A stretch of DNA of 64,000 nt, taken from the NCBI GenBank assembly GCA_965140785.1, contig OZ223497.1, positions 128,001 to 192,000 on the forward strand. The letters are read 5' to 3'. The stretch is from an uncultured Ruficoccus sp. GTDB taxonomy: Bacteria > Verrucomicrobiota > Verrucomicrobiia > Opitutales > Cerasicoccaceae. The notes under the pieces were generated by a model, which was not told where the DNA came from, did no database searches, and saw only the letters and a program-made list of their open reading frames with translations. The translations under genes and the position numbers were made by a program. Below, one piece after another: positions 3,859 through 22,560 of this stretch (within the stretch, counting starts at the first letter, position 1; each line of letters opens with the position of its first letter).

Positions 3859-4547
3859 ATGTCCGTTTTTCATCATCGCCGATTTTCTCGGCCTGAGGTT
3901 TTGGCTTCGATCCGACCTGAATTGCTGCGGCGTTTTCTTACGCCCTATCAATCGTATTTTCACGGAGGTGGATTCGATATGAAGTGTCTGAATCATCGGG
4001 CCGGGCCAGTTGAGTTGACGCATCTGTCGGACGTACTGATGACGACAGAGTCGGGCATTCCTCCAGAGGTAGCGAATGCCCTCTACGCTGTCCACGAAGT
4101 GGCAGTAGAAGAGAACACGGAGCTTCTGGAAATGCTCGCGTCCTCGGAGGAGGTGCCTCTTGAGCCGGATTCGACGTTGCTGGAGCTTGCGCTCAGCCTG
4201 TGGATGAGCGCTCCGAAGGCGCTCAAATGGGTTCACCAGCATCAGTCCTGTGAGCGCAAGCGCTCTTTCGAGTATTTCAGTACGGCGGGAGATGCTTCGT
4301 CTGATTTTTCTCTGAGTGCGGAAGGGATTCGTCAGTTGGAGCAAAGTCTGTCCTATTACTTCAAAAAGAAGGATTGGGGCCATGGCTGTCGTATCAGTCA
4401 TCGTTCGCAGCCAAACGAGCACTGGTTCTTAGTCAGCCATGGTGAGCGCTATAAGCGACAGGCGACATGGGAAGAGGGTCGGATGGGTACAATTGGCTTC
4501 CGGCCTGAGCGGTATGACCTCATCATCTACGATGCCCTGACGTGCGG
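3859..4547 (+). pseudogene. Hypothetical protein of a type recalled from PVC integrative elements, truncated by the downstream IS
   Basis: ORF (RRFSRPEVLASIRPELL...FRPERYDLIIYD) runs into the IS left end and stops within it; family recognised from memory only. Confidence 0.45.
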
Positions 4548-4666
4548 TGCATGTACCATTAATTTTTAGAGAGAAGATTTGAAACAACAAGCTTACCTAT
4601 TACTGACCATGATGGCTGGCTGGATGAACCGTCAGCAGCAGCAAGTCATCGACTATTTGGTCGAGG

Positions 4667-4708
4667 TACCGAACTGAGGCGTAGCCTCGGTGACAAAGCG
4701 TAGCGCCC
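4667..4708 (+). repeat. 42-nt hairpin mini-insert 'a'
   Basis: TACCGAACTGAGGCGTAGCCTCGGTGACAAAGCGTAGCGCCC; identical at 35978-36019 and 50767-50808; empty site GAG GAA AAT CGT near 17022-17033. Confidence 0.9.
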
Positions 4709-5459
4709 AAACCGCATTCTCCGTGAGCAACTCGACATCCATGCCAAAGGCAAGCGCATCCGTTTCAATGCGACCCAGCGCAGACGCTTGGCCGAGAAAG
4801 GCCGTTGCTTGGGACGCAAGTTGCTGATGAATATCGCGACGCTGGTGACGCCGGAGACGATCTATCGTTGGCATCGCCAATTCGTCGCAATGGCTTATGG
4901 TCCGAAGGGTAGGGATCATTCCGTTGTCCATGCTCGGCGGGCCGAGCGCAATGCGCTCATCATCAAGCTTGCAGTTGAGAACTCAGGCTGGGGATACACG
5001 CGCATTCAGGGCGTGATGCAGAATCTCGGTTATCCCAAGCTGAGCACTTCGACCATCGGGGAGGTGCTGCGAGAGGCAGGTATTCGCCCGTCGCCGGAGC
5101 GTAGCAGTCGTCTGGACTGGAAGACGTTTATCCGTGTTCATGCCGATCAACTTGCGGCTACGGATTTCTTCATGGTGCCGGTATGGACGTTGCGTGGCCT
5201 GGCCATGTATCGGGTGCATTTCGTGATCGACCTGCTGACACGCAAGGTGGAGATCACGCACATCGGTTGCCAATACTCGGGCGAATTGATGCTTCAAATT
5301 GCCCGGAACCTGACGGATGCGTTCGAGGGATTCCTGACCGGCAAGAAATACCTGCTGCACGATCGGGATACTCTCTTTACAAATGTGTTCCGCGAGTTGT
5401 TGCGCAGTAGTGGCACTATCCCTTTCAGGCTTCCTGTGTGCATGCCGATGATGAACGGC

Positions 5460-5484
5460 GGGCGCCTACGCCAGCCCGCCCGGC
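5460..5484 (-). repeat. 24/25-nt palindromic mini-insert 'b'
   Basis: Inserted in the N-G-Y-A-E motif; 24-nt in-frame version at 36771-36794, whose reverse complement ends in GCGTAGCGCCC like insert a. Confidence 0.8.
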
Positions 5485-5518
5485 TACGCCGGGTGCTTCG
5501 TTAAGTCGATCAAGCGTG

Positions 5519-5555
5519 TACCGAACCTGCGAAGCGGCGACAAAGCGAAGCGCCC
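5519..5555 (+). repeat. 37-nt hairpin mini-insert 'c'
   Basis: TACCGAACCTGCGAAGCGGCGACAAAGCGAAGCGCCC at the expected Glu of SIKRECL (net +36 nt, in frame); near-identical at 36829-36865. Confidence 0.85.
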
Positions 5556-5973
5556 ATGCCTGAACAAGATGATTTTCTTCAGCGAGGATGCTCTGCGGAA
5601 AGCCATCAGCGAATACGTGCTGCATTACCATCATGAGCGACCGCATCAGGGCCGCGATAACAAAATCATCGAGCCGGATGTAGAAACCTTTCGCAATCAG
5701 GGCCCGATCCGAAAAATCGCACACCTCGGAGGGCTCCTGAATCACTACTATCGCGACCCATTACCCAAAATTGAAGAAGAGGAGGGTCGGGCCGCATGAG
5801 CTTTTCCGGTAGTTACTTTTCTTCAAAAAATGCCCGAATTCGATGCTCGGGTGACTCCTTCCCCATCGACTCATATGCCCTGAATCGGCAAAATTATGGG
5901 CGTATGATTTCGTCCTCCAACCTGCAAACGAAAGGATTCTTGGCACGCGCAAGTGACTGAGCGATGCGCGTCC

Positions 5974-6089
5974 ATGCGACTGCGTGCAACGCTACTGATT
6001 TAATTACGCCTTAACTCGAAAATGAATGAAGTTGCTGTATGCTGGTAATCAGCGACTTACGATAGGCCGTCCGCGTCCCGCCACCTCCA
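5974..6089 (+). repeat. att-like repeat copy A ending in a tmRNA/tRNA-Ala-like 3' end
   Basis: ATGCGACTGCGTGC...CCTTAACT...AAGTTGCTG-N12-CAGCGACTT...CCGCGTCCCGCCACCTCCA; homologous to 17078-17184 and 57305-57421. Confidence 0.8.
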
Positions 6090-6129
6090 GGAGACAACGG
6101 ATTGCCGTTTTGAAAACGTTTGCCGCCTA

Positions 6130-6804
6130 TTACGCTTTGCGACGCTTGAAGCCAAGGATGCCCGCCAACGGGATCGCAATCAGAAGCAGCGTACTGCTGT
6201 CCGGCTCTGGAATACTCTGCGCCACGAAGTTAACAGGTGCTCCAGTTCCGGCACTCCAGGCGGCGGTGGTTCCATTGTCATTCCATTGCACCAGCGTGGT
6301 TCCGTTAGAGGATTCGGCCTGATAGAAGTTCGTCAGTGCATTAGAGACGAATGAGATGACGATGGAATAGGTCTCGTTGTCGGTGAGCGTGTAGGGCGTG
6401 GTCAGATCGAAAGTCATATAACTTTCGCTATCGTAGGTGGTGCCCGTGGCACCCGTTTCGCTGTGGAGAGAGGTGATTGGGAGCTTGGTTTCAGCGTCCG
6501 CGCTGTAGATATCGAGGCTCAATTCGGTTCCTGACGCCAGTGCAGAGGAGGCGACAAAAAACGTGATTTTATCAAGGGCCACCGTTTCGCCAGCGGTGAA
6601 AGTGATGCCGACCTGGCGAACATTGTTTGTGTAGTTGCGCAACTGAATGTTGTACTCCTCGCTGCTCACCACGGTGTTCTCGAGAAAGACATCTTCGGAG
6701 GGCAGCGTGTCAGTGTAGCTGATGTTGAGCGCATTCAGAGTGGAGGCAGCGCCCAATAGGGTCAGTGCGGTCAGAGGAACGAGATATTTGTTGGCTGTTT
6801 TCAT
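6130..6804 (-). CDS. PEP-CTERM sorting-domain protein (module A)
   Basis: Signal peptide; C-terminal IPEP + hydrophobic helix + KRRK. Confidence 0.9.
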   Translation of the reverse strand: MKTANKYLVPLTALTLLGAASTLNALNISYTDTLPSEDVFLENTVVSSEEYNIQLRNYTNNVRQVGITFTAGETVALDKITFFVASSALASGTELSLDIYSADAETKLPITSLHSETGATGTTYDSESYMTFDLTTPYTLTDNETYSIVISFVSNALTNFYQAESSNGTTLVQWNDNGTTAAWSAGTGAPVNFVAQSIPEPDSSTLLLIAIPLAGILGFKRRKA

Positions 6805-6929
6805 ATCCGTATGTATTGCTTTGGAGTATTAGTTGGCCTGAGCCAGATTAGTTAATGGCCAAATTTCCACAGATGGTCGTTTGGCTTTGAGCGATAAAGA
6901 TTACCGAAAACTGGATTATTGCGACATGT

Positions 6930-6939
6930 TACACGTGTA
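6930..6939. promoter_or_regulatory. Module A operator TACACGTGTA
   Basis: Perfect palindrome upstream of the PEP-CTERM gene; variants at 7043, 10751, 11080, 14370, 14437, all intergenic. Confidence 0.7.
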
Positions 6940-7086
6940 GTTTCTTTTGTCAACAGCATAAAGACATGGGTTTTGAGGATATTTATTTTAAACCACAAGA
7001 TACTGTTTTTAAGTATCTTAATAAACCGATGCGATAAAGGATTCACGTGTAATAAAATAGCGTTTTCTCGATACGAACGTCATTAT

Positions 7087-10000
7087 TCATTGGGTGTCTA
7101 TGACATCGAAATTGATCGGCTCCATTGGCTCCAGCCGAATCTCGTCGAGCGTCGGTTCCACGCGCGGGAAGATGTCTCGGACAGCAAGGGCTTGGCCCTT
7201 GGCGTCCACTAAGTGGAAGGCGACGGGGCTCTGTCCCAGGTTGATTGCGTAGCCGATTGTTCGACCGTTCACGTTGACGAAGCGGGCTTCTACATGGTTC
7301 GGTGCCGAGCCATTGGCGGTGCGCAGCGAGTAGGGCGCTTCGATGCCAGCCTGGAGCAGCGCGTCGGGAAGGGATTGGTTCAGACTGGCAAGGGTGCCAT
7401 CATCGATCCTGATGGCGGATTCCAGGGTGAGGGGCGGCAGGAGTTTATCCGCTTCGTCGCGTGCCAGGCTGTCGCTGCCGATCAGGATGAGGCGGACGCC
7501 GCGCTGTTCGAGTTGTGCGAGGGCATCCGGCAGTTGCGCTGAAACATGGATTGTTCGCGGAATGATCAGGGCCTGAAGATCGTTTGGAATGTTACCGGCG
7601 AGCAGGTCGCTTTCCGCAAGAAAACCGATGGACTGGTTTTGAAAGTACAGTGCCTGGTAGGCATTTTCGAGAACACGCTGGGAGCTGGTTCCGTCGTAAA
7701 TGCGCGCGGTCTGTGAGTAGAGGATGCGCGCGGGGCGGGGTGCTTCGTAAAAATGCCGGACCCGGTCCATCACGCTGTTGATGCGGATGCTTTCACGCCC
7801 GTATATACTCATGACCAGAGGCATAGTGTCCTGAGCATGCTTGAACCATTGCGCGCCTTCCCCGGCCTGCCAGAACCAGATCGATTTGTCCCGGCTGAGT
7901 GTCCACAGGTTGGCGGCGTTGAGTCCGTGCCAGGCGGCGAGCCAGAGGCTGGCACGCATATGCTCCGGGGTCGAGGGAGTGGCGTGATATTCGTTGTCTA
8001 GGATCGGCTGTTGCGGTGCGAGGCTTTTACACAGGTCAAAGGACATGGACTGGTTGCGCCACCCCAGGGCATAGGGGCCATCGGGTTCGTCCGAGACCTC
8101 GTTGTCGCCCCCGTGAGCGTCGGTCATCTGATTGATGAGAAAGCGGTCGTAGCCGTTGTCGATGCGGAATTTGGGCAACCAGCTGTGGCCGTTCATAACC
8201 TTGATGGAGGTGCGGATCTGATGGTCAGGGGCGGCGCTTTTTGCGATGTCGCCGGTCCGGGACCAGAAATCGAAGAAGCGCTGGTTGTTGAAAGTGAGCC
8301 AGTCATAGCGGCAGACAGGATGCGTGGGAAAAAGCGCGGGAAAGTTTTCGGTAGCGGCGAAGTCCGGATAATCGGTTCCCCAGGCGGCGTTGAGTGCGGC
8401 GATATTGTGGTAGCGTTTCTTCATCGCTTCGAGGAAGTTCTGCCGGGTGCGTGCGCTGATGGTTTCGATGGTGGGCTCGTTGGAGAGGTCCCAGACAACG
8501 ATATCGTCTATCAGCTTCGGGTATTTTCGCGCGAACATCTCGAAATAACAGGCGGTGGCCTTGGCCATGAACTCACGGACTTTTGGATGGTCCGGGTCGT
8601 AGTCCAGGAAATGGTTTCCCTTGAGCTTGGCATCGGGAAAGCTCTGCCCGAACCAAAGGGGGAGCTGGTTGTTGAGGACGAGGATGGAGGTGGCGATATT
8701 GTGCGCAGAGTTATTTCGCAGGGCATTCACGTCGAGGATAAGATCGACGGACGGGTCGATCGTGAGTTCGGGATCGCCGGGGACGAAATATCGGGTCGTT
8801 ACGCCGGAGATCACCTCGTAGTTGATGCCGAGGTTGTTCTTGGTCTCGCCGGTAAAATACTGGATTTTGCTTGAATAGACCTGGCCGGACAGGAAGACCG
8901 CTGAGCCGTTGGACGTGAGCGTTCCCTGATCGTAAACGATGTCAGTCACAGGTTTAACAGGAAGCAGGTGGTAGTTCCCGCTGCGGATTTCACTGAGGGC
9001 CTCGTCGAGCACGCGATCGACATCCTGGAGTTCGCGCAGGGCTAGGGTGAAGCGTTTTTCAGCCTGATCCTCCTTGATGTAGCGGTTGATAAACAGGTCC
9101 GAGACCTGCCAGGAAACGACCAGTTCCAGTGGTCGCTCAGGCCCTTCGCCTAAGGTGTCGATTGCTTTTTTTAACTGGGTCAGTTTGGTCCGGACCTGCT
9201 CGGTGAGCGGGTCGATTCGGGCCATTAGCGAAGCTGCGGAGTAGTGGTTGATCGTGACGATTTTTTCGCTGACTGTGCCGTCGATCAATTCGACGCGAGC
9301 AGCTAGCAGGTTGCCGCCATCCTGAAAATGATAAGCCGGGATGGTGAAGGCCAGTTCGGTTTCGCCGGGAGTGAAGGTGATTTCGCGCTTGTCGATCACT
9401 TGGCCGTTTAGGGTCACCGAAATACTCGCCTCGGTTTCCAGATAGCCCGTGCCGAAAATGGCGAACTGGTAGTCCTCGTGGCCGTAGAGGTCAGCGTCCG
9501 ATCCGACCACGCCCGCCGCGAAACCGGTGTCCTCCTTGTCCAAAAAAAGTATTCCGAAATCGGCCGGGTTTTTTCGGTCACCAATGCCGGGCGTCCACTG
9601 GATGAACGAGCGTTTCTCTCCGTCGCTGTCATTGACAAGCAGGTTGAACCCGAAGGCGTTCAAGTCCTCGTAGGCGACGGAGGTGATAGCTCTCCAGGGG
9701 ATTGCCAGCTCGTAGGTCGTGATTTGCGTCTCCGGGTCATGGCGCACCTCATACGAGGTGTCCCCGATGGGTGTCGGGTGGTCGGGCGGTTGGAAAAACG
9801 GATAGAGCAGTACGCCCTTCGGAGTGGCGGCTAGGCCGAACTCATAATCGTCGTGCGGGTTGAGCTGGTTCACGGAGCGGTCCCATTGCGTGTCGAAGGC
9901 GACTTGAAGGCTGTCAGCCTTCCAGAGGTTTTCGTCGTGGTAAGGTTGATACGGGGCCGGGTCAGTGACCTTTGTTTCGCAGTAAAAAGCCTCATCGTCG

Positions 10001-10710
10001 AAGGAGAGTCGAGCGACGGCCTCAAGTGGAGGGCTCCCTATTCTTATCAGGCCGTCCGGGGCGAACACGCTGTCCCGGCGGGGGACTAGCAGCGTCCGGG
10101 CAAAGGTGTTCGAATGGTGCTGGGTAACCGTAATCGGGGCTGCGCGCACGACGATGTCTTTGAGACTGACGATGCCGTCTGCATGGCCAAAAACAAACAC
10201 CAGGGTATAGTAATGAACATCCGGGGGGACGGTGATATTAACCTGCTGGTGTGTCCACTGTTGGGACTCAAAGTAGGTGCGGTAACTCGCCGGTTCTATC
10301 CGTTCCGAATACCGGGTCACTCCAGGTTGCTCGGAGAACCAGCCAGAGGTATTGAAGTGCGCAGCTTCGCCGTCAATGGGGCTGAGCGAGTTGATCTTCA
10401 CCTGGTAGCTTACTTCGAGTTTCTGTCCCTGCAGGTTCTCGACGGGAAGGTCAGCGATTCTGATCCCGGCCCATGGGGTAGATTTCTCATGTTTGTCCAG
10501 GGTGATCACCAGTGGCTCGTCATCGCCAAAACTGAGCCGCGTGCCTTTTCCGTAGGTCTGGATTGCCCGGACATCGGCGGTCAGGTCAAAGAGGGGCGCT
10601 GGGGTTGCCAGGGCGGCCAGAGAGATGATGCGAAAAAAGACTAGGGCGAGGGCAATTCGAAGGATTGTTTTGCATACGGGGGCAGGGGGGGCTTCGGCGG
10701 GATTATGCAC
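7087..10710 (-). CDS. Secreted multidomain glycoside hydrolase: CBM9-like sugar-binding domain + GH42-like (clan GH-A) catalytic domain
   Basis: DSLQVAFD...GFNLLVNDSDG...NPADFG (CBM9-like); WDLSNEP, KRYHNIAALNAAWGTDY, DNEYH. Confidence 0.75.
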   Translation of the reverse strand: MHNPAEAPPAPVCKTILRIALALVFFRIISLAALATPAPLFDLTADVRAIQTYGKGTRLSFGDDEPLVITLDKHEKSTPWAGIRIADLPVENLQGQKLEVSYQVKINSLSPIDGEAAHFNTSGWFSEQPGVTRYSERIEPASYRTYFESQQWTHQQVNITVPPDVHYYTLVFVFGHADGIVSLKDIVVRAAPITVTQHHSNTFARTLLVPRRDSVFAPDGLIRIGSPPLEAVARLSFDDEAFYCETKVTDPAPYQPYHDENLWKADSLQVAFDTQWDRSVNQLNPHDDYEFGLAATPKGVLLYPFFQPPDHPTPIGDTSYEVRHDPETQITTYELAIPWRAITSVAYEDLNAFGFNLLVNDSDGEKRSFIQWTPGIGDRKNPADFGILFLDKEDTGFAAGVVGSDADLYGHEDYQFAIFGTGYLETEASISVTLNGQVIDKREITFTPGETELAFTIPAYHFQDGGNLLAARVELIDGTVSEKIVTINHYSAASLMARIDPLTEQVRTKLTQLKKAIDTLGEGPERPLELVVSWQVSDLFINRYIKEDQAEKRFTLALRELQDVDRVLDEALSEIRSGNYHLLPVKPVTDIVYDQGTLTSNGSAVFLSGQVYSSKIQYFTGETKNNLGINYEVISGVTTRYFVPGDPELTIDPSVDLILDVNALRNNSAHNIATSILVLNNQLPLWFGQSFPDAKLKGNHFLDYDPDHPKVREFMAKATACYFEMFARKYPKLIDDIVVWDLSNEPTIETISARTRQNFLEAMKKRYHNIAALNAAWGTDYPDFAATENFPALFPTHPVCRYDWLTFNNQRFFDFWSRTGDIAKSAAPDHQIRTSIKVMNGHSWLPKFRIDNGYDRFLINQMTDAHGGDNEVSDEPDGPYALGWRNQSMSFDLCKSLAPQQPILDNEYHATPSTPEHMRASLWLAAWHGLNAANLWTLSRDKSIWFWQAGEGAQWFKHAQDTMPLVMSIYGRESIRINSVMDRVRHFYEAPRPARILYSQTARIYDGTSSQRVLENAYQALYFQNQSIGFLAESDLLAGNIPNDLQALIIPRTIHVSAQLPDALAQLEQRGVRLILIGSDSLARDEADKLLPPLTLESAIRIDDGTLASLNQSLPDALLQAGIEAPYSLRTANGSAPNHVEARFVNVNGRTIGYAINLGQSPVAFHLVDAKGQALAVRDIFPRVEPTLDEIRLEPMEPINFDVIDTQ

Positions 10711-11137
10711 TTAAGGGATTGCTGGAATGAGTGATGCCGCGTAAACATGCTACACATGTAACATGAGTGTCAATCCCATTCTCGGACTTTTGCTTTTGAC
10801 GTGAATGCAGGGGAGGCGAGTAACTTTGATTTTTTGTTCGTCGATTTAGGGAGATCACGCTTGGCTCACGCATCTATGTCCGCCTCTAGCGAGGATTTAT
10901 GCTCGATAATAATCGTTTATTGGTCGTTGATTGAATACGTCGTCCGTGTGTTTTGCTAGGGGTTGAAAATCCAAAAATCGCTTTACCCTGCTGAGATTCG
11001 TGAGTGGAAAAGCAAGGCTTTTGTTTATTAGCATGTAGCATAATCGGGTTTTGAATGCGGCATGGATTTCTTGAAATGGAACACGTGTAATAATTCGGGT
11101 TGACTTCTCCTTGTGAGTCATCCAAACTTTGACCTGT

Positions 11138-11848
11138 ATGATACCCCAACGCAAACGTCAGGCGTTTACGCTGATAGAGCTTCTCACAGCTGTTGCGGTG
11201 ATTGCCATCCTGGCCTCCGTACTTTTTTCTGCGATCATGAGCGCGCTTAAGCGAAGTCGAGAGACGCAATGCGCGTCCCGGTTGAGCAACATCGGTCAGG
11301 GCGTCATGCTGTACGCGCAGGATCACAACATGTATTTGCCCGGCCCTCTCAGCAGTGTGGCTTTCGGCGGATGGTACTCCACGCCGCGCGAGAAAGACTA
11401 CACCTACGGAAATTTGCTGGGGAGCTTTGTCGCTCCTTATATGGAAATGAATCTGCCGCCGGAGGAGGAAGGGTTCCAGTCCCGTTTTTCCGAAAACTTC
11501 GTCTGCCCGACCTGGCTGGATGAGGTCGGTGAGGCGGCGAGCGATCCATCGAATTGGATGAACACCTGTTACGTGGTACAAAAGCGGATTATCGTGGACG
11601 GTCAGCGGGTCGGGATCCTAAAGCCGTGGGGCAACCCGGTGGGAACACCTTGGGATGAGAGTTCGCCGTTGAAACTGTCGAACTTGCAGGATACCGCCAA
11701 CTACTGGATGATCACGGAGCTGGACACGGCCGGGAATCTCGGTGCGACCGCTTCGGTGGCCCAGCCGGTTCACGAGACTTTTCGCAACACGTTATTTTTT
11801 GACGGCCATGTAGAGGCTGTGCCTACGAGCCAGTCCATGTATCCCTGA
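11138..11848 (+). CDS. Prepilin-type N-terminal cleavage/methylation + H-X9-DG protein (module A)
   Basis: AFTLIELLTAVAVIAILA; C-terminal HETFRNTLFFDGHVE. Confidence 0.9.
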   Translation: MIPQRKRQAFTLIELLTAVAVIAILASVLFSAIMSALKRSRETQCASRLSNIGQGVMLYAQDHNMYLPGPLSSVAFGGWYSTPREKDYTYGNLLGSFVAPYMEMNLPPEEEGFQSRFSENFVCPTWLDEVGEAASDPSNWMNTCYVVQKRIIVDGQRVGILKPWGNPVGTPWDESSPLKLSNLQDTANYWMITELDTAGNLGATASVAQPVHETFRNTLFFDGHVEAVPTSQSMYP

Positions 11849-11854
11849 TCGCCC

Positions 11855-13054
11855 ATGATCCGCTTCGACTCATCTTCCGTACGAGCCAAGAGCCAGTGGC
11901 TGCCTCTGCTGTGTTATGTATCCGATTTGCACCGGCGCAGCACACGCCCGCCCGAGTGGCGTTTACCCGGACCGTGGGAAGAAATCGGGCCGGGCTATCG
12001 CCCCATCGGCTTCGGGCACTGGGATATTGTGCACGCAGCCTTGGATGCGTTGGTAGAAGCCCCCGGCCACGCCAGGCAACAGATTCGTAATCTGCTGGCC
12101 CTTCAGCTTGATGACGGTCTGATCCCCAGTCCGATCTATTTCCGCCCCGGGGAGGAGCCATGGGTGAACACGAAGCATAGTCATCCGGCACTGTGGACAA
12201 TTGCCGTGGATGACTGGGTGGCCCTGACCGGAGACGCTTCCTTTGTTGAAGAGTGCTTCGAGCCGCTGGTCCGCCTCATTGACTGGTTCGAGAACCATCG
12301 ACGCACAGCTAATGGCGGTTTCTTTTACGAGGACATTTGCTCGAACCACTGGGAGAGCGGTATTGATGAAGGCGTCCGTTTTGATGATCGTCTCGCGCGG
12401 CCGGCTGCCTGTGTGGACGCCACCGCTCACCTATACAACCTGTACCGCACGGCTACGGACTGGGCACGACTCACGGCTCGTGACCCTGCTCGGTGGCAGG
12501 AGGAGGCCGACCAGTTGCGTGCATTTATCCAGACGCGACTGTACGATTCGTCGCGAGGTTTTTTTTACGATGCCTGGCGGGTGAGCCAGAGCCGGGCGCC
12601 CGGCGCGTTCGAAGGTTTCTGGCCAGTGGTCGTTGGGGCGGCAACGCCTGAGCAGGCGGCCCGGGTGGTCGAGGAGCACTTGATGAACCCTCGGCGTTTT
12701 TTCACACCGCATCCGATCAGCACGTTGGCGCGAGAGGACCCCCGCTTTGAATTGCGCATGTGGCGTGGTCCGGTCTGGAACAGTATGACCTACTGGGCTG
12801 CTCGCGGGTGTTTACGCTATGGGCATCGTGAGTCGGCATGCCGGATTCTGGAGCACGCTCTGGATCAATCGGCGCGTGTTTTCGCGGAGACGGGCACGAT
12901 CTGGGAATTCTATCATCCCGATGGCGGTGATCCTCGTCAGCTCACGCGCAAACCCGGTACGGACCGGGCGATTCCCTGCCGCGACTATCTCGGGCATAAT
13001 CCGCTTATCGCCATGGCCGAGCTTTGGGAGCGCTGCGTGGCCGGAGCCGGATGA
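11855..13054 (+). CDS. GH63/trehalase-like (alpha/alpha)6 glycoside hydrolase
   Basis: HWD, SHPALW, WESGIDEGVRFD, MWRGPVW, WEFYHP. Confidence 0.8.
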   Translation: MIRFDSSSVRAKSQWLPLLCYVSDLHRRSTRPPEWRLPGPWEEIGPGYRPIGFGHWDIVHAALDALVEAPGHARQQIRNLLALQLDDGLIPSPIYFRPGEEPWVNTKHSHPALWTIAVDDWVALTGDASFVEECFEPLVRLIDWFENHRRTANGGFFYEDICSNHWESGIDEGVRFDDRLARPAACVDATAHLYNLYRTATDWARLTARDPARWQEEADQLRAFIQTRLYDSSRGFFYDAWRVSQSRAPGAFEGFWPVVVGAATPEQAARVVEEHLMNPRRFFTPHPISTLAREDPRFELRMWRGPVWNSMTYWAARGCLRYGHRESACRILEHALDQSARVFAETGTIWEFYHPDGGDPRQLTRKPGTDRAIPCRDYLGHNPLIAMAELWERCVAGAG

Positions 13055-13074
13055 GAAATGCCACCAGTCCGGGG

Positions 13075-14148
13075 TCAGTCTCGTGATCGTGGGGCTGGAC
13101 CCGAGGATTCGCGGCTAATGAATTGTGGCGTGATCCATTGGGTGCTGGTCGGCGCGGGGACGGCGGGGCTTGGCGTGGTCGCGGGGACGGCGGGGCTTGG
13201 CGTGGTCGCGGGGTGGATGCGTTGTTGCAGTAATTTCAGGGCGGTTTTGATCGTGGTGGCAACTTGCTGGTCGATGGTGGTCAGGCGCGGACGGATCTGT
13301 TCGCTCAGTTCCAGATTATCGAAGCCCACCACCGAGATATCTTCCGGGACAGAAAGACCGCGGTCACGCAGTTGGAACACGGCGCCGGCGCCAACCATGT
13401 CGTTCATAGCGACGAGTGCAGTGGGGCGAGGGCGCGCATCGAGCGCGAGGTCTGCGCAGATACGGCCCTCAAACATGCCACCGCCATTACGGATGCCTGT
13501 GGTTGTGGTAAAGATCATTGCGTCGCGCTCAATGTCCAAGCCACGTTTGGCTAGAGCAGTTTTGACATAATCGCGCCGCCAAGCAGACATTTCTAGAAAG
13601 CCGAAGTGACGGTGGCCGAGATCCCAGAGATGCGCGATGAGCATCTCGACTGCCAGGCCACGGTCGAGCTGGACATTGAGCACATTGACCGGTTGGGGTG
13701 CGTCCACGACGACGCAGGGCATGGGATGTTTTTCGAGCAGTTCGAGGGATTGTTCGGAGACCAAGTCGATAAAGAACATGCCATCGACCCGAAAGGAATG
13801 AAATTGCCCGATGATCTGCTTTTCCAGTTCCTGGCTGTGGTCGCTGAATTCGACCAGGACACGGTATCCCTCATTGCGCAGGAGCCGTTGAAACGTGGCC
13901 AATTTGCGGGCCATGATCAAGTTGTCGATATGAGTGATACAAATGCCGATCGTCCCCGTGTTGGCTCCCTTCAGCGCGCGGGCGAACAGGTTGGGGGAGA
14001 AGCCGACTTCCTTCATCGCCTGAAGAACACGCAGGCGGGTTTTCTCGTTCACCCCTTCGTGGTCGTTGAGCACGCGGGAAACCGTCGCCCTGGATAGCCC
14101 CAGGTGCTTCGCCAGCGATGAGGTCGAATGAATGGATGAAACAGTCAT
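13075..14148 (-). CDS. LacI-family regulator (module A)
   Basis: LAKHLGLSRATVSRVLN HTH, VPEDISVVGFD; start placed at MTVSS. Confidence 0.9.
   Translation of the reverse strand: MTVSSIHSTSSLAKHLGLSRATVSRVLNDHEGVNEKTRLRVLQAMKEVGFSPNLFARALKGANTGTIGICITHIDNLIMARKLATFQRLLRNEGYRVLVEFSDHSQELEKQIIGQFHSFRVDGMFFIDLVSEQSLELLEKHPMPCVVVDAPQPVNVLNVQLDRGLAVEMLIAHLWDLGHRHFGFLEMSAWRRDYVKTALAKRGLDIERDAMIFTTTTGIRNGGGMFEGRICADLALDARPRPTALVAMNDMVGAGAVFQLRDRGLSVPEDISVVGFDNLELSEQIRPRLTTIDQQVATTIKTALKLLQQRIHPATTPSPAVPATTPSPAVPAPTSTQWITPQFISRESSGPAPRSRD
13153..13212. repeat. 27-nt in-frame tandem duplication (PATTPSPAV x2) in the LacI C-terminus
   Basis: CGCGGGGACGGCGGGGCTTGGCGTGGT twice plus a partial third copy. 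Confidence 0.9.
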
Positions 14149-14534
14149 ATCGTTGCGTGGTGGTATGGTTTGCCTTCTAAAAGTCTCGTTGGGGGCGCGC
14201 AATGACGATTTGTCATACCGCATCCGATTATTACAGCCATTCGCTGTGCCAAGCAAGAAACGTAGCGGCCCCGCCAAGTATCCATAACGTGCGCATTAAT
14301 ACCCCGCTGTGAAAAATTGAGCAACAGGTGGTATCGGGAGGGCATAGAAAGATTTGTATAAAAAATTTCTACATGTGTCGAAGCTATATATTTGATATTT
14401 ATATTGACCTGTAAAAGGTGCAATGTAAATAAAAGCTACACGTGTGACAAATTTGGATTTCCATCTCTAGGGATGGATTGAGCGTGTGACACGAGGCAAA
14501 TGCCTGACTTTTAACTACCCGACCATTTTCCCTG

Positions 14535-16835
14535 ATGCATTGGATTGATTGGCTCATTACGATCTTACCGGTTTCGCTGGTTATATTTCTCGCCGTTTAC
14601 AGCAAGCGTTACGTCCGTGGTGTCGTGGATTTCTTGGCCGCCGGCCGCGTGGCCGGGCGCTATGTGCTGTCGGTGGGCGACCTGTCATCGAGCCTGAGTG
14701 TGATTACGCTGGTGGCCTTGGTGGAGTCCAAATATCAGGTCGGGTACGCGCTGACGTTCTGGGAATATCTTACGGTTCCGGTCAGCCTCATCATGGGCTT
14801 GACCGGTTTTTGCGTTTACCGTTTCCGCGAAACGCGGTCGCTCTCGATCGGGCAGTTTCTGGAAATGCGCTACAGCAAATCGCTGCGCATTGTCGCGGCC
14901 TCATTGCGCACGCTGTCCGAGATGGTCTCCAATGCGATCGGACCGGCAGTGGCGGCCAATTTCTTCATATACTTTCTGGGAATGTCTCACAAAGTAGAGA
15001 TATTTGGGGTGGTCTTGCCGACCTTCGGCCTGATTGTGGCCTTGTCGCTCTGCCTGTGTATGGTCGTTATTTGGTCGGGAGGCCGCATTTCCCTGCTCAT
15101 TTCGGACGCCTTTCAGGGCCTGATGAGCTACCCGATTTTTGTGATCATCGCCGGATACATCTTACTCAACTACGGCTGGTCTGACACCATCGCGCCGGTT
15201 ATGATGGACCGGGTCGAGGGGGAAAGCTTCATCAATCCCTTCGACATCGAAAAACTGCGCGATTTCAACATTTTCGCCCTCCTGGTGACGATTATGGGGA
15301 ACATCCTCAACAAGGCCAGTTGGATCGGCAATGACACCACCGGCAGTGGGCGCACGCCGCACGAACAGAAAATGGCAGGCATTCTGGGGGGGTGGCGTTC
15401 GCTCTATTCGAGTCTGATGCTTCTGCTGATTGCCATCATGGTCATCGCATTTATGACGCACCCGAAGTTCGCTCGAGACAGTCACGATATCCGTCTTGAA
15501 CTGTCGCAGGAGGTGGCAGAGGAGGCCATCAACGATTCGGCTCTGAGGGGGCAACTTGCGGCGGGGATGGACGCAATCCCGGTTGCCGAGCATCAAATAG
15601 GTGTAGATGCCCCCTTGTCTCGCGACAGCAATATCGACACCCCCTACATGGAGACTGCCAGGAAAACGCTGGGCGGTACGCCCGAAGGAAACCTTCAGTT
15701 TCAGAAATTCCGCACTCTCTATCATCAAATGATGCTGCCAGTGACACTGCGGAATATTCTGCCGGTGGGGATGATGGGGTTGTTCTGCCTGCTGATGATT
15801 ATGCTGCTGATCTCGACCGACGACTCGCGCATCTTCAACGCCTCCTCGACGATCGTGCAGGATATCATTCTGCCATTCAGGAAAAAACCGTTTACCCCCC
15901 GGCGGCATATTCTGGTTCTGCGTTTATCTTCGCTGGGGGTTTGCCTGTTTTTCTTTGTCGTCTCGATATTCTTTGTGCAAATCGACTACATCATCATGTT
16001 CACGGTCATTATGACCTCGCTGTGGCTGGGCGGCGCGGGTCCGATCATGGTGTTTGGTCTCTACAGCCGCTTTGGCAATACCGTAGGCGCTTTCGGCTCG
16101 CTGATTTTCGGGTCCGGTTTCGCCATATTGGGGCTTTTCTTTCAGCGCAAATGGGCGGAAATGATCTATCCTTGGTTGGTCTCCCATGGTTGGGAGTTGC
16201 CGGTCGGGAATTTTCTGGAAAGCGTTTCGCGTCCGTTCAACCCTTATATCGTCTGGAAAATGGACGCGGTGAAATTTCCCATCAACTCATATGAGCTGTA
16301 TTTCATGGCCATGGTGAGCGGGATTTTTGCCTATGTGATTGGTTCGGCTTTGACGCAACGCAAGCCCTTCAACCTCGACCGACTCCTGCACCGTGGCAAA
16401 TACGACATCGCCCACGAATACAAGGAGCCCTTCCGGTGGAGCGTCCGTAACGCTTTTAGGAAAATCATCGGCATTACCCCGGAGTACACCTTGGGCGACC
16501 GCATCATTGCGTGGTCGGTCTTTAGTTACGCGATGATCTACAAGTTCGGGTTCTGCTTCATCGGCGTACTGATCTGGAACGTGATTTCGCCTTGGCCGTT
16601 GCAGTGGTGGAGCACATACTTCTTTATCACGAGCTTGTGCGTCACGGCTGTCCTTGGAATCGTTTCCACCTTCTGGTTCCTGATTGGAGGCATCATCGAT
16701 ATTCGCAGGCTCTTTATAGACCTTGCCGCCCGCATCGACAATCCGCTCGACAACGGTATGGTGGAGGATCACGTCTCCCTCGCCGATAGGGCAGCTTTCA
16801 GGGCGAGGGAGGACCCCACTGAGGATCAAGAGTAA
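14535..16835 (+). CDS. Sodium:solute symporter (SSS) family transporter
   Basis: Many TM segments, DFLAAGR, QFLEMRYS, LPVGMMGLF. Confidence 0.85.
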   Translation: MHWIDWLITILPVSLVIFLAVYSKRYVRGVVDFLAAGRVAGRYVLSVGDLSSSLSVITLVALVESKYQVGYALTFWEYLTVPVSLIMGLTGFCVYRFRETRSLSIGQFLEMRYSKSLRIVAASLRTLSEMVSNAIGPAVAANFFIYFLGMSHKVEIFGVVLPTFGLIVALSLCLCMVVIWSGGRISLLISDAFQGLMSYPIFVIIAGYILLNYGWSDTIAPVMMDRVEGESFINPFDIEKLRDFNIFALLVTIMGNILNKASWIGNDTTGSGRTPHEQKMAGILGGWRSLYSSLMLLLIAIMVIAFMTHPKFARDSHDIRLELSQEVAEEAINDSALRGQLAAGMDAIPVAEHQIGVDAPLSRDSNIDTPYMETARKTLGGTPEGNLQFQKFRTLYHQMMLPVTLRNILPVGMMGLFCLLMIMLLISTDDSRIFNASSTIVQDIILPFRKKPFTPRRHILVLRLSSLGVCLFFFVVSIFFVQIDYIIMFTVIMTSLWLGGAGPIMVFGLYSRFGNTVGAFGSLIFGSGFAILGLFFQRKWAEMIYPWLVSHGWELPVGNFLESVSRPFNPYIVWKMDAVKFPINSYELYFMAMVSGIFAYVIGSALTQRKPFNLDRLLHRGKYDIAHEYKEPFRWSVRNAFRKIIGITPEYTLGDRIIAWSVFSYAMIYKFGFCFIGVLIWNVISPWPLQWWSTYFFITSLCVTAVLGIVSTFWFLIGGIIDIRRLFIDLAARIDNPLDNGMVEDHVSLADRAAFRAREDPTEDQE

Positions 16836-16847
16836 CGCCTTGGCTGG

Positions 16848-17086
16848 AGGTGTGGAGTATGCGATTTCAGGTTTTCTTGCCCCTTGGCAGCGACTTATGG
16901 TTTTTTGAAAAAGTCGTCTTGAACCCGTAAACTTTACTTTTGTTGAGCTTGATGGCCGGTGGGGGAAGCTGCGAAGTGCTGACCCATGAGCCGCCAGCAG
17001 CAAGTCATCGAATATTTGGTTGAGGAAAATCGTGTTCTTCGTGAGCAACTCGACATCCACGCCAAAGGTAAATGCGTCAATGCGAC
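16848..17086 (+). mobile_element. 5' fragment of the same IS (carries insert 'd' at 16963-16985, lacks insert a), fused to att-like repeat B
   Basis: RQQQVIEYLVEENRVLREQLDIHAKGK; upstream ~75 nt homologous to 35798 and 50591; junction at microhomology ATGCGAC. Confidence 0.8.
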
Positions 17087-17184
17087 TGCGTGCTACTCAA
17101 TGACCTTAACTGGCAAATGAGTGAAGTTGCTGGGTGCTGGTAATAAGCGACTTATGAATGCGAGTCCGCGTCCCGCCACCTCCA
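17078..17184 (+). repeat. att-like repeat copy B
   Basis: Same motifs as copy A; core CCGCGTCCCGCCACCTCCA at 17166-17184. Confidence 0.8.
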
Positions 17185-17313
17185 CGGTGACGGGCAAGTT
17201 CACCTCTTTGGCTATGGGCGTTTTCGGTGGCGCGATCTTCACCCTTCTGAGTTGTGTAGAGCACTGACGGTATGAGCTGCGGATTTATCTACGGGTATAT
17301 TAGGCGGCAACTG

Positions 17314-17329
17314 ACGCAACAGTTATCGT
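17314..17329. promoter_or_regulatory. Module B operator (ACGCAACAGTTATCGT)
   Basis: Related 16-mers at 18542-18557, 19665-19680, 27274-27289, 35691-35706, each upstream of a gene start. Confidence 0.7.
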
Positions 17330-17444
17330 AGAGGGGGGGTTGCTGGCTCAATCTGGGAGAGCCTACTGTTGCAGGATAACCTCAAAAGGAAACGGCTACC
17401 ATTTCTGCTTTAAGCAATGATGGCGCTTCCTGCCGGTACGAACG

Positions 17445-18452
17445 ATGTGTTTTAAAATATGCCTTATCGGGTGCGGCGATTTTGCCGGTCAAGTCCATGG
17501 CTCTGCCCACCTCAGCTACGCCCACAGCCATCCGCGGACGGAGCTTACTGCCTGTTGTGATATCGACGCCGGAAGGGCAAAGAAATTTGCGGCGCGGTTT
17601 GGGTACGCTCGCCACTATTCGGATATGGAGGCGATGATGGATCGGGAAAAGCCGGATGCGGTGGTCGTACTGGTCATGCCACAGGTTACGGCGAAGGTTG
17701 TAGCCGCAGTTCTGTCGCGAGGATTGCCTGTTTTTTTGGAAAAGCCCCCGGGCATGAATCTTAAGGAGATCGACGAGCTGATCGCAATCTCAGCGGCGCA
17801 TATGGCGCCGACGCAGGTTGGATTTAATCGGCGTTATATGCCGCTGATGCAGCGTGCGCGGCAGATCCTTGAGGTAGATTTTGCACCGATACAGCAGGTT
17901 AATTACAACATGATCCGCTATGAGCGCAATGACCCCGATTTTTCCATAACTGCGATTCATGCCATAGATGCCGCAATGTTTTTGGCCGGCAGCCCGTATC
18001 GCCGGATGAGGTTGGATTACGAGGCGCTTGAGGGGTTTGACGTGAGCCGTTGGAACGTCTCGCTACGCGGGGAGTGCGAGTCCGGCGCGTTCGTCAATAT
18101 CCACATCCAGCCAATGGCCGGTTATTTGTCAGAATCCTTTAGCGTACACGGAGTCGGCGTCTCCCTGCTCGGGGAGGTGCTGGGGCCCGGGCTTACGGCG
18201 AATGTTGGGCGACTGGAACATTGGGTGGCCGACAAGCGCATAGGGGAGTATTCCGACACGGGACTCACGAAATCTGTGCGAAGAGGTGTTGACGGGGAGT
18301 TTTCCGCCTTTTGCGATGCCATCCGTTCGGGGAATACACCGACACCTTCGCTGGAGCAGTGTCGACGGCAAGTTTGCCTGATGGAGGCTCTTCGTAACCG
18401 TGAGACCGGAGTGATTGATTTTTCCACGTTGATGCTAAGTACGCCCGGTTGA
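17445..18452 (+). CDS. Gfo/Idh/MocA oxidoreductase
   Basis: ICLIGCG, VFLEKPP, VGFNRRY, AIHAID. Confidence 0.9.
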   Translation: MCFKICLIGCGDFAGQVHGSAHLSYAHSHPRTELTACCDIDAGRAKKFAARFGYARHYSDMEAMMDREKPDAVVVLVMPQVTAKVVAAVLSRGLPVFLEKPPGMNLKEIDELIAISAAHMAPTQVGFNRRYMPLMQRARQILEVDFAPIQQVNYNMIRYERNDPDFSITAIHAIDAAMFLAGSPYRRMRLDYEALEGFDVSRWNVSLRGECESGAFVNIHIQPMAGYLSESFSVHGVGVSLLGEVLGPGLTANVGRLEHWVADKRIGEYSDTGLTKSVRRGVDGEFSAFCDAIRSGNTPTPSLEQCRRQVCLMEALRNRETGVIDFSTLMLSTPG

Positions 18453-18557
18453 TGAAGTCGGCCCTTGTCGGCCTGTTCTCACGAATTTTCTTTACCGGGT
18501 TCTCACTGGTACCTGTTTGAACATTGACTCCTGTTCGTTTCACGAAAACAGTTGCGT

Positions 18558-19592
18558 ATGGAAGAGCGCAGGGTCACGATCCGCGATATCGCCCGTGAGT
18601 GTGGCGTCCATTTTACTACGGTTTCGCGGGCCTTGTCCCGCCACCCGAGTATTCCAGATGCGACCTGCGAGCGCATTCAGAGCAAGGCGACGGAAATGGG
18701 CTATATACCCGATCCGATGCTGTCTGCGATCAGTGCGTACCGCACGAGCATACGCCAGCGAAGTTTTCAGGGAAATATCGCCTGGGTGACCAATTATCCC
18801 GAGGAAAAAGGCTGGGCCCGGCATGAGATATTCAGACTGCATTTCAAAGGTGCCAGACGGCGGGCCGATGAGCTTGGGTATCGCTTGGAGGAGTTCTGGC
18901 TGGGTGACCCATCAATGAGAAGCACGCGGGCGGCTCAGATCCTTCAGACACGAAACATTCGGGGGCTGCTCTTGTGCGCGCAGCCGACCGCGGGGGTGAA
19001 ACTGGACTTTGACTGGTCCCGTTTTTCCTGTGTGACCTTTGGTTATACCTTAGCGTATCCGGCTCTACATACGGTGGCCGGGCATACTTTTCATGCGATG
19101 GTGAAAGTGATCGAACGTGTGCGGAGCCTGGGCTACAAGCGCTTGGGCTTCGCGATATCGTCCGCTGGCGACGAGCGTATTTTCAATATCTGGTCCGGGG
19201 CTTTTTTGACCCAGCAGCAGCATTGGCCCCGGAGTGAACGTGTCCGCATGTATTCACCCAATCAATTAAATGAGAAAGGTTTTCTGGCATGGGTCCAAAA
19301 ATATAAGCCCGATGTTATTCTTGCGCAGGAGCAAGGTTTGATCGGCGTTTTGGAAAAGGCCGGGTTTCTGGTGCCGCAGGACATCGGCTTTGCCACACCT
19401 TCTTTAATTACGGACCCGCGGAAGCCCAGCGGGATCGATGAGAACCCGCAACAGATGGGGGCAGCGGCCGTCAACATGCTGGTTGGCATGCTCCAGCGAA
19501 ACGAAATGGACATACCTGAAAATGCATATTGCCTGCTGGTGAAAGGGACCTGGTGCCCCGGTTCAACTTTGCGGAATAAAGCCCAGGACTAG
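18558..19592 (+). CDS. LacI-family regulator (module B)
   Basis: VTIRDIARECGVHFTTVSRAL; LGYRLEEFWL and GIDEN motifs of the PVC LacI subtype. Confidence 0.9.
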   Translation: MEERRVTIRDIARECGVHFTTVSRALSRHPSIPDATCERIQSKATEMGYIPDPMLSAISAYRTSIRQRSFQGNIAWVTNYPEEKGWARHEIFRLHFKGARRRADELGYRLEEFWLGDPSMRSTRAAQILQTRNIRGLLLCAQPTAGVKLDFDWSRFSCVTFGYTLAYPALHTVAGHTFHAMVKVIERVRSLGYKRLGFAISSAGDERIFNIWSGAFLTQQQHWPRSERVRMYSPNQLNEKGFLAWVQKYKPDVILAQEQGLIGVLEKAGFLVPQDIGFATPSLITDPRKPSGIDENPQQMGAAAVNMLVGMLQRNEMDIPENAYCLLVKGTWCPGSTLRNKAQD

Positions 19593-19728
19593 AGCGGGAA
19601 ATGCGGACATGTCTTCCGCCTCGTGCTCGCTGAACAGCGACGGCGAATCTCATCAAGACGGAGAATGCTACAGTTATCGCGATGAATCCCTTGCCGGGAA
19701 ATGGCTGATCGTGATGATTGGAACCATC

Positions 19729-20578
19729 ATGATGAGTCAATCTTCGGAAATGACGATCCGCGAGCTGCCCGGTCGCTGCTGTTTTTCCACACTGGGGTGC
19801 CCCCGAATCCTCTTTGGACGAAGCTCTCGTCTTAGCCGAAAATTGGGGCTTCGAGGGCGTTGAGCTGCGCGCCCTGGATGGCTCGATCGATTTAGTGGAA
19901 GCCCTGAGCCGGAGATATGGTGAGCCGCGAGAGTTGGCCGAGGCCATGCAGGGGAGGGCGATTCGCATTGCTGCGCTGGATGCTTCGCTGCATGTGCGTA
20001 ATCCGAAGCCGGAAGACCGCGAGGAACTACTGGCATTGGCTGGCTGGGCGGATGCATTGGGTGTTGAGCGTCTGCGTGTCTTTGATGGCGGACGGAACGA
20101 AACCACGCTGAGCACGGAAGCGCGCGATGATATGTTGAGCACGCTCGATTGGTGGCAACGGGAGCGTCAGAAGCTCGGGTTTCGTTGCGACCTGATGATC
20201 GAGACTCATTGGATATTAACGAATCCCGAGTACTGTCTTGAGCTGGTCAGGGCGGCATCCATGCCCGTGGCTATCCTGTGGGACAGTTTTCATACGTGGG
20301 CGCATGCTCCCGTCTCGCTGGAAGATACTTGGGCAATGCTGAATCCGTATATTTGCCATATTCATTTTCGGGATGGTTACCGGGATGAAAGTAAACCGGA
20401 AGGGGCGACCTATACCCTCCCGGGGCAAGGGGACTATCCGCTCGAAGCGCTTTTCACCCTTTTGAAGAAGGGCGGCTACGCCAACTGGTTTTCGCTGGAG
20501 TGGGAGTGGCTGTGGCACCCAGAGCTACCGTCACTGGAGGAGGCACTCGTTACGGGCCGTCAGCGCGGGCTGTGGTGA
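19729..20578 (+). CDS. Sugar-phosphate isomerase/epimerase (xylose-isomerase-like TIM barrel), +1 frameshift near 19800
   Basis: FSTLGCP and LDEAL...GFEGVELR join if one C of a C5 run is removed; IETH, WD..H, HIHFRD, SLEWE. Confidence 0.8.
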
Positions 20579-20582
20579 GCCA

Positions 20583-21342
20583 TTAGGATGACGCTGCACG
20601 GGCGGCGTCGCAGACGGCCGCTGCGTAGGCTGGCTCGAAGTCCGCGGGTGCGATATTCGTCGTGGGCGCGAAGATGCCGACCCGCCGCAATCACTTCGCG
20701 GTCCTCGTTGAAAACAGGCGCGGCCATGCCCAGTAAGCCCGGCCCGTACTCCTCCTTGTTCAAGGCATAACCACGCTCACGGATCACCGCCAATTCCTTA
20801 CGCAGGGCCTTGCTGCCTGTGATCGTTTTGTCCGTGTAGGTTTTCAGTCTGCGCTTGAGCGCCTGCTCCCCGCCTTCACCCCAGGAGAGAAAGACCTTGC
20901 CGGGGGCGGTGGCGTGCAGGTCATAGCTGACCCCGATCTCGCCCGTCACGGAGATAGGCTTTGTCCCCTTGACCACATGGATCATGAGCGCCTTGTTCTC
21001 ATGGGGCACGCACAGATAGGTCGATTCCCCCGTTTTCCGGTTCAGTTCCTTGAGGGCAGGGAGCGCCTGATCCAGCAGCGTAGTACGGTTACGGCTCCCG
21101 GCGAAAAACTGAAACGGTGCCAGCGTCAATTCGTACACCGGACTGGCCGCGTGCTGATCAACCCAGCCCAAGTCGGTCAGCGTCTCAAGGATGCGCAGGC
21201 ACATGTTTTTGGAAACATCAGCGCGTCGGGCGATCTCGCTCACCCCTAGGGGCTCGCTACTGTCCTTGATCACGCCGAGGACAGCGATGCTCTTACGCAA
21301 TGCCGTCACGTTGTATTCCTGCACGCTCTTCTTCGTCGCCAT
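20583..21342 (-). CDS. IclR-family regulator (+1 frameshift near 20681)
   Basis: LGVSEIARRADVSK HTH, HATAPGKVFL, IRERGYA; corrected C-terminus VGIFAP...AASS*. Confidence 0.85.
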
Positions 21343-21436
21343 GCCGTATTCATCCCACCGGCTTCCGTTTTATTCAATACATTTTGACGCGAAAAGGAAT
21401 GCTTAGGTAAGTGATTGTTGTTTTATATTTATATAT

Positions 21437-21456
21437 TTGTTTGACATGTAAAACAA
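21437..21456. promoter_or_regulatory. Probable IclR operator TTGTTTGACATGTAAAACAA
   Basis: 18/20 palindrome in the AT-rich divergent promoter between IclR and the aldolase operon. Confidence 0.6.
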
Positions 21457-21491
21457 TTGGGGCCAATAAACGCCCAACAAAACGAAACCCG

Positions 21492-22554: not shown

Positions 22555-22560
22555 TCTTTT

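Follow-up and report, generated by a model that had tools for sequence, protein, structure and literature searches.

Repeats closing in the 3' end of the tmRNA gene in an uncultured Ruficoccus sp. are probably att half-sites of islands that integrate at ssrA

The window analysed here is a 64-kb stretch (64,000 nt) of contig C26 (C26:128001-192000) in the source genome of an uncultured Ruficoccus sp. (G000; 4.36 Mb in 50 contigs, 59% GC), and it holds three copies of a 120-150 nt repeat closed by the 18-mer CCGCGTCCCGCCACCTCC. The 18-mer lies at 6071-6088, 17166-17183 and 57404-57421, all on the + strand, and a window search allowing up to three mismatches returned these three matches, every one exact, against a shuffle mean of 0.14 and a maximum of 1 (100 shuffles). 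Upstream of it each copy carries an imperfect 9-bp inverted repeat with a 12-nt loop (arms 6029-6037/6050-6058, 17124-17132/17145-17153 and 57362-57370/57383-57391), whose right arm stops 12 nt before the 18-mer in all three. Similarity among the copies begins near CAATGCGACTGCG and ceases directly after CCTCC, where copies 1 and 2 continue with A and copy 3 with G. An earlier note on this DNA had described three equally oriented sites, an inverted repeat about 12 nt ahead of the 18-mer and an end of similarity at that 18-mer, all of which we recovered.

For reasons set out below we call the repeat a P-O unit, the left arm (P) and core (O) of an attP. Copy 1 spans 5941..6089 on the + strand, with its similarity starting between 5941 and 5974 and ending at 6088/6089. 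Its core (6076..6089, +) consists of the same 14 nt as the end of the tmRNA gene before CCA, namely T-stem 3' strand, acceptor 3' strand and discriminator A, its hairpin (6029..6058, +) includes one G.T pair on the + strand, and a candidate arm-type site, CCTTAACTC, lies at 6009..6017 (+) with a degenerate second site about 11 nt upstream. Copy 2 (17078..17184, +) has its core at 17171-17184, its hairpin at 17124-17153 and a candidate arm site at 17104-17112, the first arm-type site having been taken out by an 11-nt deletion. Copy 3 (57305..57421, +) bears two candidate arm sites (57331-57339 and 57342-57350), a hairpin at 57362-57391 and a core at 57409-57421 that is 13 nt long and followed by G instead of A.

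The likeness of copy 1 to other copies runs further left, into a repeat of ~1.5 kb that is an insertion sequence (IS); the earlier note made no mention of the IS adjoining copies 1 and 2. Directly left of copy 1, this decayed IS3/IS481-like element (4543..5936, +) has an rve-type transposase split by frameshift into ORFs 4788-5504 and 5569-5799, and its usual left end has been swapped for ~80 nt of other sequence (4543-4622). A left-end fragment of the IS (16849..17071, +) is fused directly to copy 2 by internal deletion, as a MITE-like remnant. The same IS recurs at 35800..37247 (+) without a P-O unit at its right end, and IS and repeat are thus separable. Copy 3 has no adjoining IS and is flanked on its left by a dinB-like gene on the - strand. 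MITE-like internal-deletion derivatives of the IS, made of its left 220 nt and a 3' part with no P-O unit attached, were also seen at window 50592-51042 and at C26:99120-99540. Just left of the IS beside copy 1, a 2.1-kb segment encoding an ADH_zinc-type dehydrogenase and a 236-aa ORF (window 2441-4542) is duplicated with 99.8% identity about 60 kb away, just past a tRNA-Ser(cga) gene (C26:70078-72179), and may reflect either a segmental duplication of recent date or an artefact of assembly.

The DNA between the copies is accessory in character. The 11-kb block between copies 1 and 2 (6090..17077) encodes a PEP-CTERM-like protein, a 1207-aa GH42/CBM9 protein, a prepilin-type N-methyl protein, an MGH1-like glycosidase, a LacI regulator and an SSF transporter, of which only the last found matches in the four other species of the genus (G001-G004), these being paralogous, at 66-76% DNA identity and elsewhere in the genomes. 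The 40-kb block between copies 2 and 3 (17185..57304) carries sugar dehydrogenases, heparinase-like, sulfatase, GH31 and esterase genes with LacI/IclR regulators, and the window blocks overall also include SSF transporters, GntR regulators and prepilin-type N-methyl proteins. Parts of the 40-kb block (~17 kb and 3.6 kb) are present in G002 only and the remainder was mostly not found in the congeners; the shared stretch, 17315-35712, has 86-91% identity and lies in G002 in a different context with no repeat there. To the right of copy 3, congener matches are at paralogue level only. The GC content of C26 is 0.60-0.63 up to 70 kb and from 190 kb, and lower between, the low-GC stretch beginning just past tRNA-Ser(cga) at 68.3 kb and stopping just past copy 3. 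From their sequence context, the window copies thus appear to be relict right-end scars bordering accessory carbohydrate-use DNA. Three further repeat families of about 76, 125 and 270 nt (window 62648-62723, 59254-59379 and 60343-60621) occur at many congener loci with 78-93% identity, and similar small repeats lie around the tRNA-Ser gene (C26:68.2-68.9 kb).

The gene from which the core derives was identified on another contig. ARAGORN predicts a single credible tmRNA gene in the genome, ssrA at C4:89785-90137 (+; tag GENEYAMAA), whose 3' end reads ...TCCCGCCACCTCCA-CCA, with TCCCGCCACCTCCA being the same 14 nt that close the repeat. The 13-mer CCCGCCACCTCCA (CCCG to A) has seven matches in the genome, in ssrA and six repeat copies only, with ~0.13 expected. 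Both the att-like arm with a tmRNA-type 3' end proposed in the earlier note and the U70 and A73 that it had deduced agree with this gene, whose acceptor stem shows G3:U70 and discriminator A73. The note had made its reading depend on some tRNA or tmRNA gene of the genome having this end and had named tmRNA or tRNA-Ala as the source; the first of these stands by the 14-nt identity, and the second falls, since the three tRNA-Ala genes end differently (...GCTCCACCA, with no match to the core), making ssrA the target. As a candidate target of the C26 copies, tRNA-Ser(cga) (C26:68274-68361) was likewise rejected, with a 3' end matching the core at 10/14 positions only, and no displaced tRNA-Ser fragment was found in the genome. 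ARAGORN also reported a permuted 'tmRNA*' at C47:85482-86080, but its tag of 29 residues is implausible and the prediction probably spurious.

An nhmmer profile search of the 4.36-Mb genome retrieved 12 repeat copies at E <= 8e-12 (11 by BLAST), distributed as 7-8 on C4 (up to seven full-length and one partial tandem), four on C26 and one on C49. Core ends on C4 lie at 132762, 146668, 170175, 170261 (the partial tandem), 180343, 230053 (degenerate) and 236536, all on the + strand; those on C26 at 82077, 134088, 145183 and 185421, again all +; and that on C49 at 3253, on the - strand. The position of the copies relative to the gene, a count that the earlier note had called for, is one-sided: every C4 copy lies 43-146 kb downstream of ssrA on the same strand, and the profile search found none in the 90 kb upstream of ssrA on that contig. 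Directly past ssrA, C4:90138-105000 (L001) holds a 411-aa ORF, an IS3 transposase, a Fic protein and phage/GTA-like baseplate genes (BR0599, Gp84_N, Rcc01698_C), and resembles a prophage-like element in decay that now occupies attL. The 411-aa ORF (- strand) was considered as the integrase and discarded, having no Pfam/NCBIfam match and no similarity to the integrase described below.

Comparison with the four congeners and with 36 genomes of other genera placed the repeat within the genus. It was found in three of the four congeners (G001, G002 and G003) and in none of the 36 other genomes (11 from its own family and 25 from elsewhere in the order). Downstream of ssrA and on its strand, copies occur at 12.9 kb in G002, at 71.5 kb in G003 and, in diverged form, at 14.5 kb in G001, where the copy closes an island opening with a different, 594-aa integrase; two further congener copies are away from ssrA, on C58 of G003 and at 1.71 Mb in G001, the latter with its core lost. 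Up to ...CCACCTCCA the five tmRNA genes have one and the same sequence; straight after it they are unrelated, and the repeat stops at the same base, which indicates that the 3' boundary of the gene is a recombination breakpoint in every species. Foreign DNA follows ssrA in 5/5 species, leaving no empty target site for comparison. Nine bases past the core, ACGGTGACG, are common to copy 2 (17184-17192) and the 3' flank of ssrA in G002 (L027:2001-2012); beyond them the two diverge with no longer homology detected, and this extension may represent a variant core or a shared ancestral junction. Local alignment of the right flanks of the copies with ssrA flanks gave nothing at z > 4 (10 x 5 comparisons). 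Synteny with G001 is too broken to link C26, and with it the window copies, to the ssrA array on C4: a placement of C26 after C4 was rejected because the anchors downstream of G001 ssrA scatter over many contigs, those that would fit, a CvfB-like gene (C26:199 kb, 89% amino-acid identity) and C26:286-290 kb, being suggestive only.

Two copies outside the window, C4_180343 and that on C49, share a 160-nt sequence to the right of their cores. This sequence occurs directly past ssrA in G003 and G004 and past the repeat copy G003_C14, and a diverged version was detected past ssrA in G000 as a weak profile match. Its distribution is that of a P' right arm, which would make the repeat the P and O parts of a lambda-like attP, and the resulting P-O-P' junctions appear attP-like, as expected between tandem elements. 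In both G000 P-O-P' junctions the motif CCTTAACTG (at most one mismatch) is present at -90/-79 in the P arm and at +117/+127 in the P' arm, on the + strand throughout, and the G003_C14 junction has one such site on P and two on P', against a genome background of 0.085 per kb (~0.03 expected per 320 nt). In phage lambda, attP has arm-type sites P1, P2 and P'1-P'3 around the core, and the layout of CCTTAACTG would be that of such arm-type integrase sites, with two direct repeats on the left and two to three on the right, the distance to the short core being some 80-130 bp and the whole site measuring ~320 bp. Unlike lambda, the core here belongs to a tmRNA gene, the candidate arm sites are separated from it by a 9-bp hairpin, and IHF, Xis and Fis sites were not identified. 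No P' arm was found anywhere in the window, its three copies included (0/3); in 9/12 G000 copies, including all three in the window, the core is followed by unrelated DNA.

The hairpin is conserved: on the + strand 94% of its cells are paired and G.U cells number 18 compared with 4 for A.C, three pairs are altered on both sides, and the covariation score was reached in 0/500 shuffles. This pattern hints at a single-strand or RNA role, although the copies are related by descent and the G.U excess may therefore reflect few events. Together with the uniform strand orientation, the compensated pairs are what would be expected if the repeat encoded a structured RNA (a small RNA or tRNA-like 3' element) or were an intergenic repeat of the REP type with no part in recombination. 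We hold this to be extremely improbable, as the window contains no Rfam match at gathering score and no tRNA or tmRNA gene by ARAGORN, the unit lacks a 5' acceptor strand complementary to CACCTCC, the copies stand in no consistent relation to neighbouring genes, and such a reading would account neither for the perfect match with ssrA nor for the linked P' arm and integrase.

The integrase in question is a tyrosine recombinase of 399 aa (C4:181727-182923) located 1-1.4 kb beyond P'. Members of its family (369-399 aa, ~395 aa) sit past P' after one variable gene; the recombinase matches PF00589 at E 1.7e-5 and the XerC model at E 1.5e-11, in both cases falling short of the family cut-off, and the nearest solved structure is a mycobacteriophage integrase (E 0.003). 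The cognate integrase is also found beside ssrA in G003 and G004, with 94% and 92% amino-acid identity to that of G000. Of 121 genomes from the order, 30 encode homologues at E <= 1e-15, and of 18 homologue loci inspected with ~1.5-kb flanks, three hold a tmRNA gene, nine more a tRNA gene (Ser five times, Pro twice, Asp and Val once each) and six neither; tmRNA or tRNA genes at 12/18 loci indicate a clade that targets tDNA. Close homologues adjoin tRNA-Ser genes in other genera. Homologues are often paired paralogues, with about 55-60% and 47-50% identity to the query, placed back to back in G041, G045 and G130 (L069, L070, L072) and ~4 kb apart in G003 (C14:292713-299093). The slot between P' and integrase contains a different defence-like gene in each element and looks like an exchangeable defence-gene position: a Tpt1/KptA RNA 2'-phosphotransferase with a 224-aa ORF on C4 of G000 (L005:15344-16726), Abi_C on C49, HNH in the first G003 element and GmrSD at the second G003 junction, the last three genes occupying L009:2195-3043, L028:2840-3616 and L029:13454-15289. 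In G004 the variable gene is a 165-aa ORF.

In G000 the cognate integrases amount to one intact gene, on C4, and one fragment, on C26. No recombinase was found among the 44 window ORFs scanned against Pfam, a genome-wide search placed no PF00589 match within C26:128001-192000, and no serine recombinase lies beside the scanned G000 copies. The fragment lies outside the window at C26:98854-99126, corresponds to aa 184-270 of the ssrA-type integrase with ~90% identity and is truncated where the left end of the IS3/IS481-like element begins (99120); its presence indicates that the C26 region once held a cognate element. The tyrosine-integrase island origin put forward in the earlier note is borne out to the extent that a tyrosine recombinase, a matching P' arm and copies downstream of ssrA in congeners were all found.

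An integrase as conserved as a host gene over three species (92-94% amino-acid identity) also fits a different arrangement, in which the units would be active recombination sites and the whole would work like an integron: an ssrA-linked integrase, resident and passed on vertically, would capture and shuffle integrase-less cargo, each cargo module closing in one P-O site whose hairpin acts single-stranded. Nine of the 12 units without P' and with a sharp end at the core, the single direction of all copies in a contig, the kept hairpin with its G.U bias on the + strand and cargo consisting of self-contained sugar-use modules with their own regulators would all agree with such a platform. We nevertheless judge it very unlikely. 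Lambda-type integrases normally need both arms, the integrase scores 22 bits with the integron-integrase model against a cut-off of 265, the units end in a tmRNA core and not in the attC crossover GTTRRRY, kinship of the copies weakens the argument from G.U pairs, and the block shared with G002 is not bounded by the repeat there. Neither excision nor reshuffling was seen in public-run contigs: no trustworthy excision or circle joint was present in Logan contigs of two runs of one study, where the one joint encountered, 6059->17146 (run X3), extends over just 39 letters to one side and could derive from another copy, and loose contig ends at 17184 correspond to other repeat copies.

A second competing explanation starts from the IS. 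The IS or a piece of it is joined to the repeat in 8/12 G000 copies, 3/5 congener copies and 2/3 window copies, with junction and orientation constant throughout, and some of the spread may consequently be IS-linked. The constancy of the junction prompted a reading of the repeat as being, or having become, the right end of the adjoining IS3/IS481-like element, so that IS and repeat would move together by DDE transposition with the tmRNA-like core as a surrogate right terminus (CTCCA, facing TGGAG at the left end). Two such IS copies do have open transposase frames of 375 and 412 aa (C26:80.7 kb and C4:131.4 kb), AGCGACTTATGG is present at both ends, copy 2, as a MITE-like combination of IS left end and repeat, has GGT on either side, and the C26_82077 copy adjoins a 5'-truncated SDR gene. 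TGGAG plus GCG are common to the left terminus TGGAGTATGCG and to the right end when reverse-complemented, but this match amounts to 8/15 positions and to no real terminal inverted repeat, the best local alignments scoring 16-18 and lying inside the IS, whereas related IS of other families have ordinary inverted repeats of 15-25 nt and no P-O-like sequence beside them in 13 loci. A flanking direct repeat was seen in one of three two-ended units, with none at C4_131288-132762 or G003_C58. The two components also occur apart, the IS without the repeat at 35800-37247 and the repeat without the IS at copy 3, G002_C4 and G001_ssrA, and P-O-P' junctions have no tmRNA fragment to the left of the IS. 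Transposition would leave unexplained the P' arm common to ssrA junctions, the sites on both arms and the place downstream of ssrA in three congeners, and we regard the repeat as unlikely to be an IS end. The adjoining IS could still have helped to spread or reshape copies, and its involvement is best cast as secondary, affecting what were originally att sites.

We therefore consider it likely that the repeats are ssrA-derived att half-sites of islands integrating at the tmRNA gene, a reading based on the identity with ssrA, the P-O-P' arrangement with candidate arm sites, the linked integrase, the position in congeners and the accessory flanks. The P-O unit would be the left arm and core of the attP of a family of genomic islands targeting the 3' end of ssrA. 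Their integration would be driven by the ~395-aa tyrosine recombinase, presumably binding the arm sites, with a crossover placed somewhere inside the 14-nt block common to attP and ssrA. The left junction would then rebuild the gene (ssrA-O-P') and the right junction would keep the displaced 3' end of the gene behind the P arm (P-O-flank). Repeated integration and accretion at ssrA followed by decay could have produced the 12 right-end scars of the genome, three of which, in the window, would border carbohydrate-use blocks now without an integrase. The window copies would thus have arisen at ssrA and would now be inactive or only cis-mobilisable.

Some observations sit less easily with islands at ssrA. 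The P-O units without P' at 9/12 copies are at odds with simple serial integration, which predicts P-O-P', and loss of left parts, secondary-site recombination or IS-linked events must be invoked for them; and the 17-kb block right of copy 2, present in G002 without an adjoining repeat, counts against the model. The proposal of at least three successive integrations in the earlier note is accordingly plausible but goes beyond what the window copies demonstrate, these being on C26, with ssrA on C4, and lacking both P' and integrase.

Islands at tmRNA genes with tyrosine integrases were reportedly described by Williams in 2003 ('Traffic at the tmRNA gene'). Segments without an integrase of their own are familiar from streptococcal ICEs, whose CIMEs are att-flanked and stand in tandem with an integrase-bearing element. 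The segments described here are likewise bounded by att sequences and integrase-less; they differ in that most keep only the right half-site (P-O) with no left arm, and even cis-mobilisation is therefore uncertain.

In the Islander survey (Hudson, Lau and Williams 2015, PMC4383910), the attP of an island, of ~250 bp, carries the 3' part of its target gene, and integration regenerates the gene while the displaced 3' fragment, equally oriented, comes to lie at the distal end of the island. Most sites lie in the T-stem region or the 3' part, the tmRNA gene is the most enriched target, and 2168 genomes yielded 125 tandems of at least two islands and only four of at least three when an island was counted only with an integrase of its own. 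The displaced fragment, the tmRNA target and the tandem arrays are common to those islands and to the present genome, which differs in having 12 displaced fragments on three contigs with one intact integrase and one fragment.

The nearest analogue is that of McMurdie et al. 2011 (PMC3146451), who describe tandem islands downstream of ssrA in Dehalococcoides, bounded by 20-bp direct repeats of the 3' end within 100 kb of the gene and carrying strain-specific catabolic cargo; 15 of 31 islands have no integration module and are read there as cis-mobilisable products of accretion. Several tandem islands at ssrA, bounding repeats of its 3' end, catabolic cargo and the frequent lack of an integration module are shared with the Ruficoccus genome, whereas the Dehalococcoides islands have a CcrB-like serine recombinase (DsiB) and a bare 20-bp repeat in place of a tyrosine recombinase and long lambda-like arms, their repeats lie at most 100 kb from ssrA compared with C4 copies that span 146 kb and others on further contigs, and their cargo consists of dehalogenases as opposed to polysaccharide and sugar use (PMC3146451). 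Tandem islands at ssrA are thus already known, and what is distinctive here is the tyrosine recombinase, the long arms, the many scars and the carbohydrate-use cargo.

A more far-reaching possibility, speculative and in our estimate unlikely, is that the ssrA-linked integrase is a long-term resident of the genus and the P-O units are the working sites at which an accretion platform takes up, and perhaps reshuffles, large polysaccharide-use modules devoid of an integrase; if true, this would be an integron-like function for cassettes of 10-50 kb, built on the tmRNA gene and on one-strand hairpin half-sites.

On the likelier reading of the repeats as half-sites of ssrA islands, the finding maps the right-hand boundaries of horizontally acquired DNA in a carbohydrate-degrading bacterium and names the likely machinery in terms of target, attP layout and integrase. 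The attP/attB pair and the compact integrase could also be a candidate tool for site-specific integration. Twelve displaced ssrA fragments in one genome are far above the usual counts of island surveys, and most of the scars border sugar- and polysaccharide-use modules and not phage or defence genes, which suggests that the tmRNA-gene hotspot is a main entry point for catabolic capacity in the genus.
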